Part shown: positions 1,718-56,824 of the stretch, one piece after another
Position numbering within the stretch: position 1 is the stretch's first letter
Layout of the letters: every line of letters begins with the position of its first letter
Origin: Escherichia coli
Lineage (GTDB): Bacteria > Pseudomonadota > Gammaproteobacteria > Enterobacterales > Enterobacteriaceae
Reading direction: 5' to 3' (one strand)
DNA: 64,000 bases
Assembly: GCF_013122565.1 (NCBI RefSeq)
Contig: NZ_CP053258.1
The notes under the pieces: generated by a model
Told to the model about the DNA's origin: nothing
The model's database searches: none
What the model saw: only the letters and a program-made list of their open reading frames with translations
Program-made: the position numbers and the translations under genes

Positions 1718-2278
1718 ATGTTTTCTACTTTCAAAAAAGCAGCTCTGCTGGCAGCTATTGCATTACCTTTTTCAACTATGGCTGCGCCTACAGTCACTTT
1801 TCAGGGTGAAGTAACCGATCAGACCTGTTCCGTAAATATCAACGGTCAAACCAATTCAGTAGTATTGATGCCGACCGTAGCCATGGCTGACTTCGGTGCA
1901 ACTTTAGCTGATGGTCAGAGCGCAGGCCTGACGCCGTTTACGGTTTCTGTGTCTAACTGCCAGGCTCCAACTGGTACAGATCAGGCAATCAACACCACCT
2001 TCCTGGGCTACGACGTTGACGCTAGCACGGGTGTTATGGGAAACCGTGATACCAGCAGCGATGCGGCGAAAGGCTTTGGCATTCAGTTAATGGATTCCAG
2101 CACTTCTGGTAACCCAATAACTCTGGCTGGCGCGACTAACGTACCGGGTCTGACCCTGAAAGTTGGCGATACCGAAGCCAGCTACGACTTCGGTGCGCGT
2201 TACTTCGTTATCGATAGCGCTGCTGCCACTGCCGGTAAAATTACCGCTGTCGCAGAATACACCCTGAGCTACCTCTAA
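1718..2278 (+). CDS. Fimbrial major subunit (type-1/FimA-like pilin) of a chaperone-usher pilus
   Basis: 186 aa with an N-terminal signal peptide (MFSTFKKAALLAAIALPFSTMAA). FimA-like mature N-terminus TVTFQGEVTDQTCSV and a second Cys forming the conserved pilin pair. C-terminal beta strand ending AVAEYTLSYL. Confidence 0.8.
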   Translation: MFSTFKKAALLAAIALPFSTMAAPTVTFQGEVTDQTCSVNINGQTNSVVLMPTVAMADFGATLADGQSAGLTPFTVSVSNCQAPTGTDQAINTTFLGYDVDASTGVMGNRDTSSDAAKGFGIQLMDSSTSGNPITLAGATNVPGLTLKVGDTEASYDFGARYFVIDSAAATAGKITAVAEYTLSYL

Positions 2279-2342
2279 TTAATCTACTGGCTGGCAGTAA
2301 ATGTCAGCCAGTATTTCTTTGCACAATTAATAGTGATTTTTC

Positions 2343-3065
2343 ATGGACATGGAAAAGATAAGAATGAACATTTTTGCATATTTACTGGTACTTGTATTTT
2401 CCATGAGCATGAGCAGCAGCGCGTTTGCCAGCGTGGTAATGACCGGAACCCGTATTATTTTCCCTGGTGACGCAAAGGAAAAAACCATCCAGTTGCGAAA
2501 TACCAGCGATCAGCCCTATATCATTAATATCCATGTTGAGGATGAACGTGGTTCTGACAAGAATATACCGTTTATGCCAACCCCGCAGACATTTCGCATG
2601 GAAGCTGCCGCAGGTCAGGCGTTACGCCTGCTCTACACTGGTGATAATTTACCGCAGGATCGCGAGTCTGTTTTCTGGTTTAGTTTCAGTCAACTACCTT
2701 ATCTGAATAAGAACGATAAAAGTCAGAACCAGCTCATCCTGGCCCTGACTAATCGAGTCAAAATTTTCTATCGTCCCAGCTCAATTGTCGGTAAATCCAG
2801 TGACGCGCCAAAAAACCTGACTTACCAAGTAAAACAGAACCGCATTGAAGTGACGAATCCCACGGGCTATTACGTCGTGATTCGCGCCGCTGAACTGCTT
2901 AATAACGGTAAAAAAGTCCCCCTCGCGAATTCCGTCATGATTGCTCCTCAAGGCAAAACTGAATGGACACTACGCACTGGCATCAGCGTCGCTCCCGGTG
3001 CGCAGATTCATTTAGTGACCGTCAATGACTATGGCGTAAATGTCACGTCTGAGCATGCCTTATAA
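2343..3065 (+). CDS. Periplasmic fimbrial chaperone (PapD/FimC family)
   Basis: 240-aa ORF containing a signal peptide and PapD-like motifs (RIIFPGDAKE..., LPQDRESVFWFSF, RVKIFYRP). The true start may be an internal Met (MNIFAYLL...). Confidence 0.85.
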   Translation: MDMEKIRMNIFAYLLVLVFSMSMSSSAFASVVMTGTRIIFPGDAKEKTIQLRNTSDQPYIINIHVEDERGSDKNIPFMPTPQTFRMEAAAGQALRLLYTGDNLPQDRESVFWFSFSQLPYLNKNDKSQNQLILALTNRVKIFYRPSSIVGKSSDAPKNLTYQVKQNRIEVTNPTGYYVVIRAAELLNNGKKVPLANSVMIAPQGKTEWTLRTGISVAPGAQIHLVTVNDYGVNVTSEHAL

Positions 3066-3117
3066 GCTCTTTCCCCTTTTTTGAGCGGTATCCTTTTTCA
3101 CGCACGAGTATGTCGAG

Positions 3118-5640
3118 ATGAATAAATCCGTTGTGTCAATTTCTGCGGCAATATTGGTTTTACTCTGCCAGCCGGTTATGGGGAAAGAAATCTCACCCGC
3201 TACACCGTCAGATGAAGATAACTACACCTTTGACCCGCAACTCTTTCGCGGCAGCAGATTTAGTCAGTCGTCATTGGCAAAACTGACAACTCGTGAGTCT
3301 GTTGCACCGGGTAATTATAAAATGGATATCTACACCAATAATAAGTTGTCAGGCAGTTGGAATGTCACGTTCAAAGAAGCCGCTGATGGTCGCGTTCTGC
3401 CCTGCCTGACGCCTGAAGTCGCGGACGCGATAGGCCTCAAAACAGGGGAAGATAAGGGTGAAAAAGATCCGGTCTGTACCTTTGCTCAGGAACTCGCTCC
3501 CGGCATCACCAGCCAGACACAGTTGTCACAACTACGCCTTGACTTGTCGGTGCCTCAGAGTCAAATGATTAGTCGCCCTCGCGGCTATGTCCCCCCCAGC
3601 GAGCTGGATACCGGAGCATCGCTGGCGTTCATGAATTATATTGCCAACTATTACAACGTTGCCTATTCAGGGCAGAATGCTCATAGCCAGCGTTCGCTAT
3701 GGGCATCATTTAATGGTGGCATCAACCTTGGTGCCTGGCAATATCGTCAGTTATCCAACATGACCTGGGATAATGACAAAGGGAATCAGTGGAACAATAT
3801 TCGTAGCTATTTGCAACGCCCGCTGCCCGCCATAAATAGCCAGTTAATGATGGGGCAGCTTATCACCAGCGGAAGATTTTTCTCTGGACTCAGTTATCAC
3901 GGCGTTAGTCTCGCGACCGATGAACGTATGCTGCCGGACTCCATGCGCGGCTATGCGCCGACTATTCGCGGCGTGGCCGCAACAAACGCCAGAGTCTCGG
4001 TAATGCAAAACGGTCATGAAATATATCAGACCACCGTGGCTCCTGGCCCTTTCGAGATAAACGACCTATACCCCACCAGCTACAGCGGCGATCTGGATGT
4101 CACCGTTACGGAAGCTAACGGCGCAGTCAGTCGTTTCAGTGTCCCCTTTTCAGCCGTACCAGAATCGATGCGTCCAGGAACTTCCCGTTATAACGTGGAA
4201 GTAGGTAAAACGCAGGATAGTGGTGATGACTCGATGTTTGGTGACCTTACCTGGCAGCACGGGATGACTAATACGCTGACATTTAACAGTGGTTCGCGTA
4301 TCGCTGATGGCTACCAGGCGCTGATGCTGGGCGGAGTCTATGGCAGTTCGCTGGGGGCATTTGGGGCAAACCTCACTTGGTCCCATGCGCGTGTTCCCGA
4401 AAGCGAAGCGCAGAGTGGTTGGATGTCGCAATTAACCTGGAGTAAAACTTTCCAGCCTACTTCAACCACCGTCTCCCTGGCAGGTTATCGATACTCTACC
4501 AGCGGCTATCGTGATCTGGCTGATGTGCTGGGAGAGCGTCATGCTGCCAGCAATAAACAGTCATGGGACTCCAGCCAGTGGCGTCAACAGTCGCGCTTCG
4601 ATCTTACGTTAAGTCAGAGCCTTGCGAATTACGGCAACCTGTTTGTGTCAGGTTCAACACAGAACTACCGTGGCGGCAAAAGCCGTGATACACAGCTTCA
4701 GTTAGGTTACAGCAATAGCTTTAGCCATGGCATCAGTATGAACCTTTCCGTCGGACGCCAAAGAATGGGCGGCTATAAAGACAATTCTGATGATATGCAG
4801 ACGGTAACATCCCTTTCATTCTCATTCCCACTTGGCGGCAATGGACCTCGTGTACCAAGTCTTAGCAACAGCTGGACCCATTCAACTGACGGTAGCTCGC
4901 AATTACAAAGCTCGCTAACCGGAATGCTTGATGAAGCACAGACCACCAACTACAGCCTGAACGTCATGCGCGATCAACAATATAAGCAGACGACGCTTAG
5001 CGGAAACATGCAAAAACGTTTTTCACAAACTACCGTCGGATTGAACGCATCGAAGGGCCAGGATTACTGGCAGGCTTCAGGTAACGTACAAGGCGCGATG
5101 GCTGTGCATGGTGGCGGCATTACTTTCGGACCTTATCTGGGTGAAACGTTCGCCCTGGTCGAAGCTAAAGGCGCAGAAGGTGCAAAAGTCTATAACTCCA
5201 GTCAGCTGGAAATTAATGACAGTGGCTATGCGCTTGTTCCGGCAGTAACGCCCTATCGATACAACCGTATATCTCTCGATCCACAAGGAATGGATGGCGA
5301 TGCCGAGTTGGTCGACAGTGAAAGACAGGTAGCACCGGTTGCAGGTGCGGCGGTGAAAGTAATTTTCCGTACCCGTCCTGGTAAAGCGTTGCTGATTAAA
5401 TCCCGCATGGCAGATGGTTCGGAACTGCCAATGGGAGCCGATGTGCTGGATGAGAATAATACAGTCGTCGGTATAGCCGGTCAGGGGGGGCAAATTTACC
5501 TCCGCACAGAACAGACAAAAGGCCACTTGTCAGTTCGCTGGGGTGAAGGTGCTAACGATAGCTGCCAATTGCCCTTTGATATCAGCGGGAAGGACAGCAA
5601 TAGCCCTATCATCCGCCTGAATGAAACCTGTCAGTCTTGA
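3118..5640 (+). CDS. Outer-membrane fimbrial usher (FimD/PapC family)
   Basis: 840 aa with a signal peptide, of typical usher size, placed between a chaperone gene and an adhesin gene. Gln/Ser/Asn-rich beta-barrel composition. Confidence 0.9.
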   Translation: MNKSVVSISAAILVLLCQPVMGKEISPATPSDEDNYTFDPQLFRGSRFSQSSLAKLTTRESVAPGNYKMDIYTNNKLSGSWNVTFKEAADGRVLPCLTPEVADAIGLKTGEDKGEKDPVCTFAQELAPGITSQTQLSQLRLDLSVPQSQMISRPRGYVPPSELDTGASLAFMNYIANYYNVAYSGQNAHSQRSLWASFNGGINLGAWQYRQLSNMTWDNDKGNQWNNIRSYLQRPLPAINSQLMMGQLITSGRFFSGLSYHGVSLATDERMLPDSMRGYAPTIRGVAATNARVSVMQNGHEIYQTTVAPGPFEINDLYPTSYSGDLDVTVTEANGAVSRFSVPFSAVPESMRPGTSRYNVEVGKTQDSGDDSMFGDLTWQHGMTNTLTFNSGSRIADGYQALMLGGVYGSSLGAFGANLTWSHARVPESEAQSGWMSQLTWSKTFQPTSTTVSLAGYRYSTSGYRDLADVLGERHAASNKQSWDSSQWRQQSRFDLTLSQSLANYGNLFVSGSTQNYRGGKSRDTQLQLGYSNSFSHGISMNLSVGRQRMGGYKDNSDDMQTVTSLSFSFPLGGNGPRVPSLSNSWTHSTDGSSQLQSSLTGMLDEAQTTNYSLNVMRDQQYKQTTLSGNMQKRFSQTTVGLNASKGQDYWQASGNVQGAMAVHGGGITFGPYLGETFALVEAKGAEGAKVYNSSQLEINDSGYALVPAVTPYRYNRISLDPQGMDGDAELVDSERQVAPVAGAAVKVIFRTRPGKALLIKSRMADGSELPMGADVLDENNTVVGIAGQGGQIYLRTEQTKGHLSVRWGEGANDSCQLPFDISGKDSNSPIIRLNETCQS

Positions 5641-20587: not shown

Positions 20588-21652
20588 TTAACTGTATGCA
20601 TGTAGCGTACGTTGGCAAAGTGCCGAACGTACGCAATCCTCTTTACCGAATCGGACGATCCCGACCATTTCATCTTCTTCGAAACGTTCCAGTGCGTCAC
20701 TTAATCCGGAGCGCACGCCGCGAGGTAAATCGCATTGCGTGATATCACCGTTAACGATAACCGTCACGTTCTCCCCGAGGCGGGTTAAAAACATTTTCAT
20801 TTGCGCGGCAGTCACATTCTGCGCCTCGTCAAGAATGACAACTGCATTTTCAAAGGTACGTCCACGCATATAGGCGAACGGCGCAATTTCCACCTTCCCT
20901 ATTTCCGGTCGCAGGCAGTACTGCATAAAGGAAGCCCCTAAGCGCCGGACCAGCACGTCGTATACCGGGCGAAAATAGGGAGCAAACTTTTCTGCGATAT
21001 CTCCAGGTAAGAAGCCAAGATCTTCATCGGCTTGCAGAACTGGACGGGTGACGATAATCCTGTCGACATCCTTATGTATCAGGGCCTCTGCCGCTTTTGC
21101 TGCGCTGATCCAGGTTTTTCCGCACCCGGCTTCGCCCGTAGCGAATATCAGCTGCTTACTCTCAATAGCCTTCAGATAGTGCAATTGCGCTTCATTTCGC
21201 GCGAGGATGGGCGAAGTATCGCGACTGTCGCGGGCCATACCAATGGCTTCTACGCCGCTCATCTGCACAAGCGAGGTGACCGATTCTTCTTCACGCTGCT
21301 TATGGCTGCGCGAATCCCGTCTCAGCACACGTTTTGCCTCGCGACGAGCTTTGATCACTGCTTTTTGTCTTCCCATGGAGAGCACCTTGAGTTGTTTGTA
21401 TTCATCACACGCGCCGTTGGCAGCGCGATTATGCGCACGAACATCAGAGGGTTGGCTTCCTTGTAAGCCATAGTTTGCTTTTGGATAAAATGCCGAAAAA
21501 CGGCTACGCGCACCGTTTACGGCGTCGGTAACACATGAAAAGAAAGGATGAGGTTGAAAATGCAAAGTGACGAGATGACTACCGGAGGAGAAAACTCCGC
21601 GAGTGGTGGCGCGTTGATTATCTAAAACATGTCCAGTACAGGACGTTACCAT
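20588..21652 (-). CDS. phoH: PhoH, phosphate-starvation-inducible ATPase
   Basis: 354 aa; matches K-12 PhoH (MVTSCTGHVLDNQRATTRGVF...); Walker A GEAGCGKT. Confidence 0.95.
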   Translation of the reverse strand: MVTSCTGHVLDNQRATTRGVFSSGSHLVTLHFQPHPFFSCVTDAVNGARSRFSAFYPKANYGLQGSQPSDVRAHNRAANGACDEYKQLKVLSMGRQKAVIKARREAKRVLRRDSRSHKQREEESVTSLVQMSGVEAIGMARDSRDTSPILARNEAQLHYLKAIESKQLIFATGEAGCGKTWISAAKAAEALIHKDVDRIIVTRPVLQADEDLGFLPGDIAEKFAPYFRPVYDVLVRRLGASFMQYCLRPEIGKVEIAPFAYMRGRTFENAVVILDEAQNVTAAQMKMFLTRLGENVTVIVNGDITQCDLPRGVRSGLSDALERFEEDEMVGIVRFGKEDCVRSALCQRTLHAYS

Positions 21653-21800
21653 CCGCGATCTCCATAGTGACTGACTATCACTGCCGGGAACTTCCGCTGC
21701 TACTTAATAAGTACAACAGATCTCGCATTCATTGCAACAATATATTCACTTATATTTAACTATAAAACACCATTTTAGTGACATTAGTTTCTACTGGAAA

Positions 21801-21819
21801 GATGACAGAGTGATGACAG
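21801..21819 (-). promoter_or_regulatory. Pho box (PhoB binding site) upstream of phoH
   Basis: The + strand reads gatgacagagtgatgacag, which is the reverse complement of CTGTCATCACTCTGTCATC: two CTGTCAT direct repeats about 150 bp upstream of the phoH start. Confidence 0.6.
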
Positions 21820-21849
21820 AGATGAAAAAAGCTGTGTGCTTTCAGCAGG

Positions 21850-21995
21850 ATTCACATCAGGCATCAGTGCACGATCGCCGGATGCGGCGTGAACGCCTGA
21901 TCCAGCCTACCGACCCCGCACCGATTGTGGGCATGATAAGCAGCGCAAGCGCCACATCAGGCATCTGCGCACAAATGCCTTATCCGCCTAAAAAC
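21850..21995. repeat. Cluster of REP (repetitive extragenic palindromic) elements (BIME-like) between phoH and efeB
   Basis: REP-like palindromes gccggatgcggcgtgaacgcctgatccagcctac and gataagcagcgcaagcgccacatcaggcatc, plus a repeated ACATCAGGCATC motif. Confidence 0.6.
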
Positions 21996-21996
21996 A

Positions 21997-23268
21997 TTAA
22001 ACCCGCAATAACGCGCTTCCGAGATAATCATTCGCGTCCTTCACTCCCGGCAGCGCAAAAAAATAGCCGCCGCCGATAGGTTTAACGTATTCCTCCAGCG
22101 CTTCGCCATTGAGCCTTTTTTGTACTGTCAGGAAGCCTTTTTCCAGATCGTGCTGGTAGCAGACAAACAGCAACCCCATATCCAGTTGTCCGGAGTTGGT
22201 GACGCCCAGTGAATAACTGTAGCCACGACGCAGCATCAGGCTGGACTCACTCTCCGCCGTGCGGGGATTCGCCAGCCGGATATGGCTGTCCAACGCAATC
22301 ACCTTCCCTTCCGGGTCGCTGGCGTAATCAGGCACATCATGCTCATGCTGCATTCCCAGCGGCGCACCGGTTTGCTTATCACGGCCAAAAATCGTCTGCT
22401 GTTCTTTCAGCGGCGTTCTGTCCCAAAATTCCACTCGAAACTGAATCAAGCGTACTGCCTGATAGCTGCCACCGATTGTCCACGCAGGCTCCTGCTGATC
22501 TGCCGTTACCCACACCACTTTTTGCATCAACTTATCATTCTGGCTATCGGGATTGGCAGTGCCGTCTTTGAAACCCAGCAAATTAATCGGCGTCTCTTTG
22601 CCTTTACTACGCGCCGCGTGATCGGAAATAAACCCTTCCCGCTTCCAGCGCACACTGAGCAAATCCGGCGTGTGTTTGATGATATCGCGCAGCGCATGGA
22701 TAACCGTGTCCTGGGTGTTGGCGCAAATCTGTAGCAACACATCACCATGACATAACGCCGCATCCAGCGAGTCGTTGGGGAAACGCGTCATCTTCTGCAG
22801 CTTTTTTGGCATCTGTGGCGCAAGGCCAAAGCGCTCATCAAACAATGAGTGACCCACCGATAACGTGATGGTGAGATTATCGGGCGCAATGTAGCCGCCA
22901 AGAATGCCGGAATCGAGTGGTGGCAGGCGCGGATTTGGCGTTTCTGGTGCTGCTCCGCCCTGAGTCAGAAAAGCAAAACGCTGAGTCAACAAGCGAAACA
23001 ACCGCTCAAGATCGGCTTTATCGCTGGCAAGCACATCAAACGCCACCAGCATCATTGCGGCCTGTTGTGGCGTCAGGATCCCTGCCTGATGCTCACCATA
23101 AAACGGCTGTTTCTCATTGCGAGCATCCGGTGAAAGCGTACCCGGCGCACTTTGCGTTTTTTGTGCATGAGCGACCGGACAACTTCCCGCCAGCGCCAGT
23201 GCACCTATCACTTTCAGTAAACGTCGGCGTGACGGTTCATTCACGCCGTTTTCATCTTTATACTGCAT
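21997..23268 (-). CDS. efeB: EfeB, Tat-secreted DyP-type heme peroxidase/deferrochelatase of the EfeUOB ferrous iron transporter
   Basis: 423 aa; twin-arginine signal ([16 protein letters not shown]); matches K-12 EfeB (YcdB). Confidence 0.95.
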
Positions 23269-24458: not shown

Positions 24459-25289
24459 TTACGCGGAGCGAGACGCTGTCGCCCCTGCGCGTGGTGGCAG
24501 AGCAAATGCCACCAGCGCCGGGATGAGATAAATAAACCAGACGGCGACTTCGCTGACGCTCGGCGCTTCCTGATAGCCAAAAATCCCTTCCATCAGCGTG
24601 CCAAACAGCGAGTGAGTTGAGAGCACCGCACTCATATCGAAGGCGATTTCCTGAAAGTGGTTCCACAATCCGGCTTCATGAAATGCGCGAATGGCACCAG
24701 CTGCCAGCCCTGCGGCGACGAAGAGAATAAACAGGCTGGTCCATTTAAAAAATGCACCAAGATTGAGGCGAATACCGCCCCAGTAGAGCAGGAAGCCTAG
24801 CACCACGGCAGTAGCAAGACCGAGCATTGCACCCAGCGGCGGCCAGATCCCGACATCTTGTTGAAATGCCGCCAGCAGGAAAAAGACCGACTCCAGCCCT
24901 TCCCTTGCAACGGCAAAAAAGACCATCATCACCAGCGCCCAGCCATGATGATTTCCACGCTGCAATGCGCTATCGACTGCCTGTTCCAGTTGCACTTTGA
25001 CGTTGCGCGACACTTTGCGCATCCAGAAAACCATCCAGGTAAGGATCACCACGGCGATCACCGCCACGATACCTTCAAACAGTTCCTGTTCTTTTTGCGG
25101 AAATTCGCCGGTGGTTTCGTTAATGAAGATACCCAAGCCCAGGCACAACGCAGCGGCAAGCAACACGCCAATCCACATCACACCAATCCATCGGCCTCGC
25201 TGGGTACGCTTAAGATAGCTGGCAATCAAACTGACAATCAGCGCGGCTTCAAGTCCTTCGCGCAACATAATGAGAAACGGAACAAACAT
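24459..25289 (-). CDS. efeU: EfeU, Ftr1-family ferrous iron permease; intact reading frame
   Basis: 276 aa from MFVPFLIMLREGLEAALIV... with two REGLE motifs (REGLEAAL, REGLESVF). A single uninterrupted ORF, unlike the frameshifted K-12 allele. Confidence 0.9.
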   Translation of the reverse strand: MFVPFLIMLREGLEAALIVSLIASYLKRTQRGRWIGVMWIGVLLAAALCLGLGIFINETTGEFPQKEQELFEGIVAVIAVVILTWMVFWMRKVSRNVKVQLEQAVDSALQRGNHHGWALVMMVFFAVAREGLESVFFLLAAFQQDVGIWPPLGAMLGLATAVVLGFLLYWGGIRLNLGAFFKWTSLFILFVAAGLAAGAIRAFHEAGLWNHFQEIAFDMSAVLSTHSLFGTLMEGIFGYQEAPSVSEVAVWFIYLIPALVAFALPPRAGATASRSA

Positions 25290-25346
25290 GCCACCCACCC
25301 TTAAACGTTTTTCTGAGTCAATCTATGCAAAGAAAAGTAAATCGCA

Positions 25347-43927: not shown

Positions 43928-44003
43928 TTGCCGGATGTGATGACGCATCCGGCAACTGCGCCATAATGCCTGATGCGACGCTAAACGCGTCTTTTCAGGC
44001 GCA
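43928..44003. repeat. REP elements between cbpM and torD
   Basis: gccggatgtgatgacgcatccggc and gcctgatgcgacgctaaacgcgtcttttcaggcgc palindromes. Confidence 0.6.
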
Positions 44004-56745: not shown

Positions 56746-56824
56746 CGATATGTTTCCGCTTTTCATATCCGACATTATTGATTGCCTGATACGACGCTAA
56801 TGCGCCGCATCAGACTTACGTTCG

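Follow-up and report, generated by a model that had tools for sequence, protein, structure and literature searches.

A pho box and a REP cluster between efeB and phoH of Escherichia coli, upstream of a conserved phoH leader

In PhoB-activated promoters the pho box lies about 10 bp upstream of the -10 hexamer and replaces the -35 element. The pho box of the phoH P1 promoter in E. coli was reportedly described by Kim et al. in 1993 (J Bacteriol), and is a well-known Pho regulon site. The REP and BIME elements of E. coli are said to go back to Stern (1984) for the repeats and to Gilson and Bachellier for the BIME classification, and the Bachellier papers reportedly note that BIMEs tend to be polymorphic.

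In K-12, the motif TGTCATCACTCTGTCATC underlies a PhoB ChIP-seq peak at position 1084845, upstream of phoH; deletion of phoB lowers phoH RNA 2.8-fold (from 37,076 in the wild type to 13,375) and sigma-70 occupancy at phoH more than 2-fold (PMC10294691). REPs shield Rho-terminated transcripts at the 3′ end and can contribute to Rho-dependent attenuation (PMC6061677). They also stall ribosomes when located within 15 nt of a stop codon, according to work cited in PMC12306157.

The window analyzed here is a 64,000-nucleotide stretch of E. coli DNA, and the interval in question is the efeB-phoH intergenic region on its minus strand. A 601-bp query across the region was 100% identical to E. coli strain PapM-32-1 and found matches in 5417 of 5426 complete E. 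coli genomes, with identity across the region ranging from 80% to 100%. RefSeq annotation of PapM-32-1 and of K-12 MG1655 gives the minus-strand order efeU, efeO, efeB, phoH, with the convergent pgaD/C/B genes beyond phoH. The first-pass annotation had placed a pho box and a REP cluster in the interval 21801-21995, and both do fall within these limits. The coding sequences that frame them are as follows.

21997..23268, minus strand: efeB coding sequence, 423 aa (open reading frame list; RefSeq annotation of the 100% identical strain and of K-12).
21999-21997, minus strand: efeB stop codon TAA.
21652-20588, minus strand: phoH with the K-12-style 354-aa start, ATG at 21652 (open reading frame list).
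20588..21375, minus strand: PhoH core coding sequence including the stop codon, 262 aa, PGAP start at 21376.

The start annotated for phoH differs between records (354 aa in K-12 versus 262 aa in PGAP genomes). Farther upstream, efeU (24459-25298, minus strand) is seemingly intact as a 279-codon open reading frame and is annotated as functional in the identical RefSeq strain, in contrast to the K-12 gene, which is a frameshifted pseudogene.

Both identifications made in the first-pass annotation are correct and already known. The promoter elements lie at the phoH-proximal end of the interval.

21802..21819, minus strand: pho box CTGTCAT-CACT-CTGTCAT, the PhoB site of phoH promoter P1 (exact motif match; identity with K-12).
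21786..21793, minus strand: candidate P1 -10 region, with GAAACT 10 bp and TAGAAA 8 bp after the box (spacing to the box; cross-genus pattern).

The two CTGTCAT heptamers occupy 21819-21813 and 21808-21802, 11 bp apart center to center. All 14 specified pho-box bases match (14/14), and CTGTCATNNNNCTGTCAT has this as its sole zero-mismatch match on both strands of the 64 kb, the other nine matches all carrying 3 mismatches; by our arithmetic, chance would yield about 5e-4 exact matches in 128 kb. Set against the A/T-rich criterion for the spacer, CACT has A or T at 2/4 positions, and the same spacer is present in the PhoB-bound K-12 site. K-12 carries the identical 18-mer, bound by PhoB upstream of a PhoB-dependent phoH (PMC10294691), so the comparison with the characterized P1 promoter bears out the reading of the two direct repeats as a pho box. 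Of 5426 complete E. coli genomes, 5381 carry the 71 bp at 21780-21850, which take in the box and the sequence on either side of it, at an identity of 95% or more, and an alignment of 10 E. coli strains shows no variation in this segment. Many genera have a pho-box-like motif 410 to 430 nt away from the start of the PhoH core.

PhoB-dependent activation of P1 is established for K-12, and the identity of the present sequence suggests that it would apply here as well. Under phosphate limitation, phosphorylated PhoB would occupy both CTGTCAT repeats, standing in for a -35 element, and would bring sigma-70 RNA polymerase to a weak -10 some 10 bp past them. We infer that the likely P1 -10 hexamer is the candidate GAAACT at 21791-21786, a position at which nAnACT recurs across genera, with A2 and T6 conserved. 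A sigma-70 scan flagged two other pairs, TTTCCA-17-TAAAAT (21800-21772) and TTTATA-16-TATATT (21766-21739). The former was rejected as P1: with it, the pho box would stand too far upstream by one helical turn; most strains, K-12 among them, read TGAAAT at its -10; and the region is unconserved across genera. The supplement texts of the Cappable-seq and SMRT-Cappable-seq studies list nothing at the phoH locus. Two candidates for a third PhoB half-site were also discarded, TTTTCAT upstream of the box being 9 rather than 11 bp away and hence out of register, and CTTTCCA downstream matching at only 4/7 bases.

Variants of the site occur in other species. In E. albertii the first CTGTCAT half-site is missing (AATTGCTCGCCACTGTCAT), leaving half a pho box, and in Kosakonia (three loci, L039, L044, and L045) an extra CTGTCAT comes immediately after the hairpin of the efeB terminator (…GGGCAGGATATTCTGTCATC), about 70 nt ahead of the aligned pho box, where it may serve PhoB as a further half-site. 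Elsewhere in the window, AGTCATATTTCTGTCACA lies at 40938-40921 on the minus strand, about 35 nt upstream of the agp ATG (40885); the same sequence is the PhoB ChIP-seq motif reported in front of agp in K-12.

The pho box lies about 150 bp upstream of phoH, as first annotated, only if the K-12 start codon is taken: from the end of the box it is 149 nt to the K-12 ATG (21652) but 425 nt to the PGAP start (21376).

The whole REP cluster lies past the efeB stop codon and ahead of the phoH promoter and is therefore extragenic, between co-directional genes. Read along the minus strand, it comprises a 7-nt spacer, a Y-tail fragment, a linker, a Z copy, a linker, an inverted Y copy, a linker, and a truncated Z head.

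21990-21853, minus strand: BIME-type REP cluster (a Z-type REP, an inverted Y-type REP, and two incomplete copies).
21963..21990, minus strand: partial inverted Y-type REP tail TAGGCGGATAAGGC (21990-21977) plus head-to-head linker (from sequence).
21927..21962, minus strand: Z-type REP GCCTGATGTGGCGCTTGCGCTGCTTATCATGCCCAC, degenerate in this strain, with one mismatch to the REP head.
21877..21910, plus strand: Y-type REP GCCGGATGCGGCGTGAACGCCTGATCCAGCCTAC, inverted relative to efeB/phoH, with zero mismatches to the REP head.
21853..21876, minus strand: head-to-head linker plus truncated Z-REP head GCCTGATG (21862-21855), in the downstream copy of a 100-bp direct repeat.

The palindromes have the head GCC(G/T)GATG and the tail GCCTAC in the Y copy or GCCCAC in the Z copy. 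The head GCCKGATGCGRCG matches 17 times in the window, three of them at 21876-21962; shuffled windows gave 7.2 ± 3 matches, and 0/100 reached 17. A 43-mer containing the Y copy and its flanks occurs in at least 40 places in each of 5425 E. coli genomes. With consensus heads and tails, this copy number, and alternating orientation, the elements between the pho box and efeB are REP palindromes, as had been proposed; the consensus search gave no mismatch to the head for the Y copy and one for the Z copy, which is canonical in K-12 (GCCTGATGCGACGCTTGCGCGTCTTATCATGCCTAC, resembling the REP at window 43968-44000). The Z copy has decayed in this strain. Repeats are also present at a larger scale, with direct repeat D1 at 21853-21886 and 21953-21986 (a 100-bp repeat unit) as well as long inverted repeats. 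Further REPs in the window are found at 43930-44000, where a short perfect palindrome, GCCGGATGTGATGACGCATCCGGC, accompanies a canonical Z-type REP, and at 56784-56815 (GCCTGATACGACGCTAATGCGCCGCATCAGAC).

Folded as RNA, the whole cluster forms one long imperfect hairpin of -80.9 kcal/mol (z = -3.9; K-12, z = -5.6). The Y-REP hairpin folds at -18.3 kcal/mol, and the Y-tail fragment pairs with the head of the next REP in a hairpin starting 8 to 13 nt after the efeB stop (-16.5 kcal/mol, z = -3.0); the Z-REP folded alone, at -10.9 kcal/mol (z = -0.75), does no better than shuffled sequence. An Rfam scan of 21250-22050 at E ≤ 10 returned only naRNA4 (RF02564) on the REPs, at 34.8 bits for the Y copy and at 22 bits, both below the gathering score of 59.5, with noise elsewhere.

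The position of the cluster becomes informative in comparison with other genera. A PhoH-core scan covered 80 Enterobacteriaceae species and gave 77 loci with enough flank, in 74 of which efeB lies upstream of phoH. The distance from efeB to the PhoH core is about 500 to 560 nt outside Escherichia and 620 to 845 nt in Escherichia-lineage loci. Many non-Escherichia genera have a strong GC-rich hairpin plus T-run 30 to 70 nt upstream of the pho-box position, as in Enterobacter, where TGTCCCTGCGATAGTTCGCGGGGACA is followed by TTATTTTTTC; REP cores number zero in all but two of the non-Escherichia species, which have one each. The six Escherichia-lineage loci that retain efeB all carry 2 or 3 REP cores, and none has a canonical terminator. 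In the present strain, a terminator scan of the minus strand from 21300 to 22100 found no terminator-like site. At the phoH-proximal edge of the cluster is the following element.

21822..21852, minus strand: conserved junction AATCCTGCTGAAAGCACACAGCTTTTTTCAT, a weak hairpin GCTG/CAGC followed by T6 (21830-21825).

The junction hairpin has 4 pairs, below the terminator criterion of at least 5, and folds at -6.4 kcal/mol (z = -1.7), and the T6 beside the pho box lines up with the U-tracts of terminators in other genera. From its sequence and placement, the hairpin with T6 is probably a remnant of the ancestral efeB terminator. The Escherichia REP cluster thus occupies the efeB terminator position, and the positional equivalence, the absence of a terminator, and the alignment of the T6 together indicate that it has probably replaced that terminator.

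The first-pass annotation had gone on to suggest that the cluster may insulate efeUOB transcription from the phoH promoter. This suggestion draws support from the fact that the REPs sit where related genera keep an intrinsic terminator, and from the published 3′-end protection and occasional Rho-dependent attenuation by REPs (PMC6061677), and we regard it as plausible, at roughly even odds. If, as we infer, the cluster is transcribed, it would be the 3′ untranslated end of the efeUOB mRNA, and its hairpins would define and protect that end. The REPs together with the residual U-tract, possibly with Rho, would stop most efeUOB transcription before the phoH promoter, and the first hairpin, less than 15 nt from the efeB stop, may lower efeB translation by stalling terminating ribosomes. 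Our preferred reading, to which we give a probability of about 55%, is that a P1 pho box and a REP cluster acting as the efeUOB 3′ end, with a presumed insulating role, account for this interval.

Published transcript data bear on this reading in two places. The K-12 Term-seq data of Adams et al., from three growth conditions, show no 3′ end in 1084600-1084999, which is weak evidence as efeUOB is poorly expressed under those conditions; efeB and phoH are not among the entries of the RepRanger supplements. Adams et al. also list a putative Rho-termination region at K-12 1084619, with counts in 800-nt windows of 33 upstream and 77 downstream without bicyclomycin and of 54 upstream and 413 downstream with the drug. 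This site was rejected as an instance of REP-mediated termination, since read-through from efeB cannot account for a downstream count of 413 that far exceeds the upstream count of 54. The downstream rise points instead to events inside the phoH transcription unit, and the Rho signal near 1084619 is better explained by the phoH leader considered below.

The variation among E. coli strains also bears on the preferred reading. The ten-strain alignment has a sharp boundary: AATCCTGCTGAAAGCACACAGCTTTTTTCAT, the pho box, and all that follows as far as the phoH ATG are nearly invariant, and the REP part is variable. Two complete REPs are present in this strain, K-12, and O157; a third complete, inverted REP stands in first position in three strains (L006, L009, and L011). 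L005 has lost exactly one 100-bp unit, which joins the two D1 copies and leaves no complete REP, and L004 has a different palindrome in first position. Such variable structure fits the known polymorphism of BIMEs. It also argues against any exact required structure, and against a strict insulator, which would be expected to be more stable than a content of 0 to three complete REPs. In a further strain, E. coli EC596 (L003), the sequence from efeB to the pho box is unlike the REP cluster of the present strain.

The main rival explanation starts from this instability and holds that the cluster is a selfish or neutral passenger of the REPIN/BIME type, spread by a REP-associated transposase and inserted by chance beside the old efeB terminator, any termination being due to the residual hairpin, T6, and Rho. 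Besides the unequal REP content of the strains, it would account for the range of identity across the region (80% to 100%, against at least 95% almost everywhere in the adjacent pho-box segment), for the decay of the Z copy in this strain, and for the restriction of the repeat to Escherichia among the genera compared. It accounts less well for the retention of REP cores and the lack of a canonical terminator in six of six efeB-retaining Escherichia-lineage loci, and the residual hairpin on which it relies is so weak that something else probably makes the efeUOB 3′ end. We consider a mere passenger possible, although on balance doubtful.

The REPs might alternatively act mainly on efeB, by stabilizing its mRNA against 3′ exonucleases and possibly by stalling ribosomes and so lowering EfeB. 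The stability of the first hairpin and its location 8 to 13 nt after TAA would suit such a role, and both effects have precedents in the literature, the 15-nt rule as cited in PMC12306157 and mRNA stabilization in PMC6061677. The L004 allele, with its different palindrome as the first element, speaks against it, and we hold an efeB-centered function to be improbable as the main one. Less probable still is an action of the REPs as DNA, in which a BIME-2-like gyrase site would relieve supercoiling between the co-directional units: no IHF-type motif WATCAANNNNTTR was seen by eye in the 13- to 16-nt linkers, and short linkers without it presumably fit BIME-2 rather than BIME-1.

Downstream of the preferred P1-plus-REP arrangement, the dependence of the pho box-to-phoH distance on the start codon points to a conserved, structured leader that contains an open reading frame. 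This leader is more interesting than the pho box and REP finding itself. Its features are listed here.

21376..21700, minus strand: conserved phoH leader/N-terminal extension (78-species alignment and covariation).
21663-21660, minus strand: SD-like GGAG of the leader, with the upstream ATG at 21652 and the core ATG at 21376.
21682-21666, 21644-21631, 21602-21581, 21526-21489, 21469-21454, and 21433-21403, minus strand: leader helices.
21580-21527, minus strand: C-rich, G-poor tract (35% C and 9% G in every species).

Aligned over 78 species, the approximately 420 nt that separate the pho box and the core ATG consist of invariant blocks with variable stretches between them, and RNAalifold predicts leader helices with many compensatory changes. 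For a structure with 8 helices and 39 pairs, the share of paired cells was 95.8%, compared with 28 to 50% when the partners were slid. Seventeen pairs had double changes, a number reached in 0/500 shuffles, and the covariation score was 0.229 versus 0.149. Five of the six helices listed are supported by covariation, and one is invariant. The Rfam scan of 21250-22050 placed no known RNA family over the phoH leader.

An invariant GGAG-N7-ATG (ATG at 21652) opens a reading frame without stops over at least 84 codons in 78/78 species. In 52 of them it runs in frame into the PhoH core; in the other 26 it is out of frame and terminates either 19 nt past the core ATG or 26 nt short of it. Stops average 3.3 and 6.1 in the other two frames, and only 2% of shuffled leaders were free of stops. 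Codon periodicity was absent from the 78-species alignment (entropy of 0.81, 0.77, and 0.79 at positions 1, 2, and 3), and this flat profile indicates that the peptide sequence does not look conserved. A -1 frameshift breaks the long PhoH form in E. coli E69 (the GTDB representative), E. albertii, Citrobacter, and Salmonella, and in strain EC596 (L003) the leader is interrupted, after the pho-box region and before the PhoH core, by an IS3-family element at positions 1963-3191 of the locus.

The Term-seq data for K-12 include a 3′ end at 1085072, equivalent to window position 21572, 80 nt after the K-12 phoH ATG and within the C-rich tract. Combined with the bicyclomycin-sensitive region (77 to 413), it hints at Rho-dependent attenuation inside the phoH leader. 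The open reading frame, the helices, and the C-rich tract together fit a translated, structured leader possibly coupled to such attenuation, and we tentatively propose, at odds clearly short of even, that the pho-box-driven leader of about 400 nt (in K-12, the first 92 phoH codons) is a translation-dependent attenuator. The C-rich, G-poor tract, which contains the mapped RNA 3′ end, resembles a Rho loading site; ribosomes on the leader open reading frame would cover this site and melt the helices, and translation of the leader would in this way control the amounts of transcript and of ribosomes arriving at the PhoH core. A Ribo-RET study reported that phoH has a conserved in-frame internal start and raised local synonymous-site conservation, the cause of which it left open (bioRxiv 10.1101/520783). 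That report covers only the internal phoH start and not an attenuator mechanism, and the literature searched gave no account of a phoH leader mechanism. If the leader is regulatory, it would add a layer of control after initiation to phoH, a poorly understood gene of the Pho regulon.

The intergenic region itself is a clean natural example of a REP cluster at a place where related genera have an intrinsic terminator, and its natural alleles with 0, 2, or 3 complete REPs could be used to probe REP action at a gene boundary.

Compared with the known systems, the locus matches K-12 phoH P1 in the 18-bp sequence of the box and in its position relative to phoH and the neighboring genes, the only differences being SNPs in the flanks (TCTCTGTCAT here versus TCACTGTCAT in K-12 upstream of the box, and CACTAAAATGG versus CACTGAAATGG downstream). 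With the REP/BIME elements of E. coli the cluster shares imperfect palindromes of 34 to 36 nt, extragenic placement, high copy number, alternation of Y and Z copies in opposite orientations, and strain polymorphism; it departs from the typical case in its degenerate Z copy and in having truncated copies at both array ends. BIME-1 has a long linker with an IHF site, whereas the linkers here are 13 to 16 nt, with no IHF-type linker seen by eye. The cluster resembles naRNA4, the REP325-derived nucleoid-associated RNA and the sole Rfam family to match it, in having a REP-type hairpin, but its scores lie well under the gathering threshold, so that it is related to the repeat without belonging to the RNA family. 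Finally, the efeB terminators of other Enterobacteriaceae stand in the same place, between the efeB stop and the T-run upstream of the pho box; Escherichia lacks their strong GC-rich hairpin and has instead a 4-bp stem with T6, preceded by the REPs.
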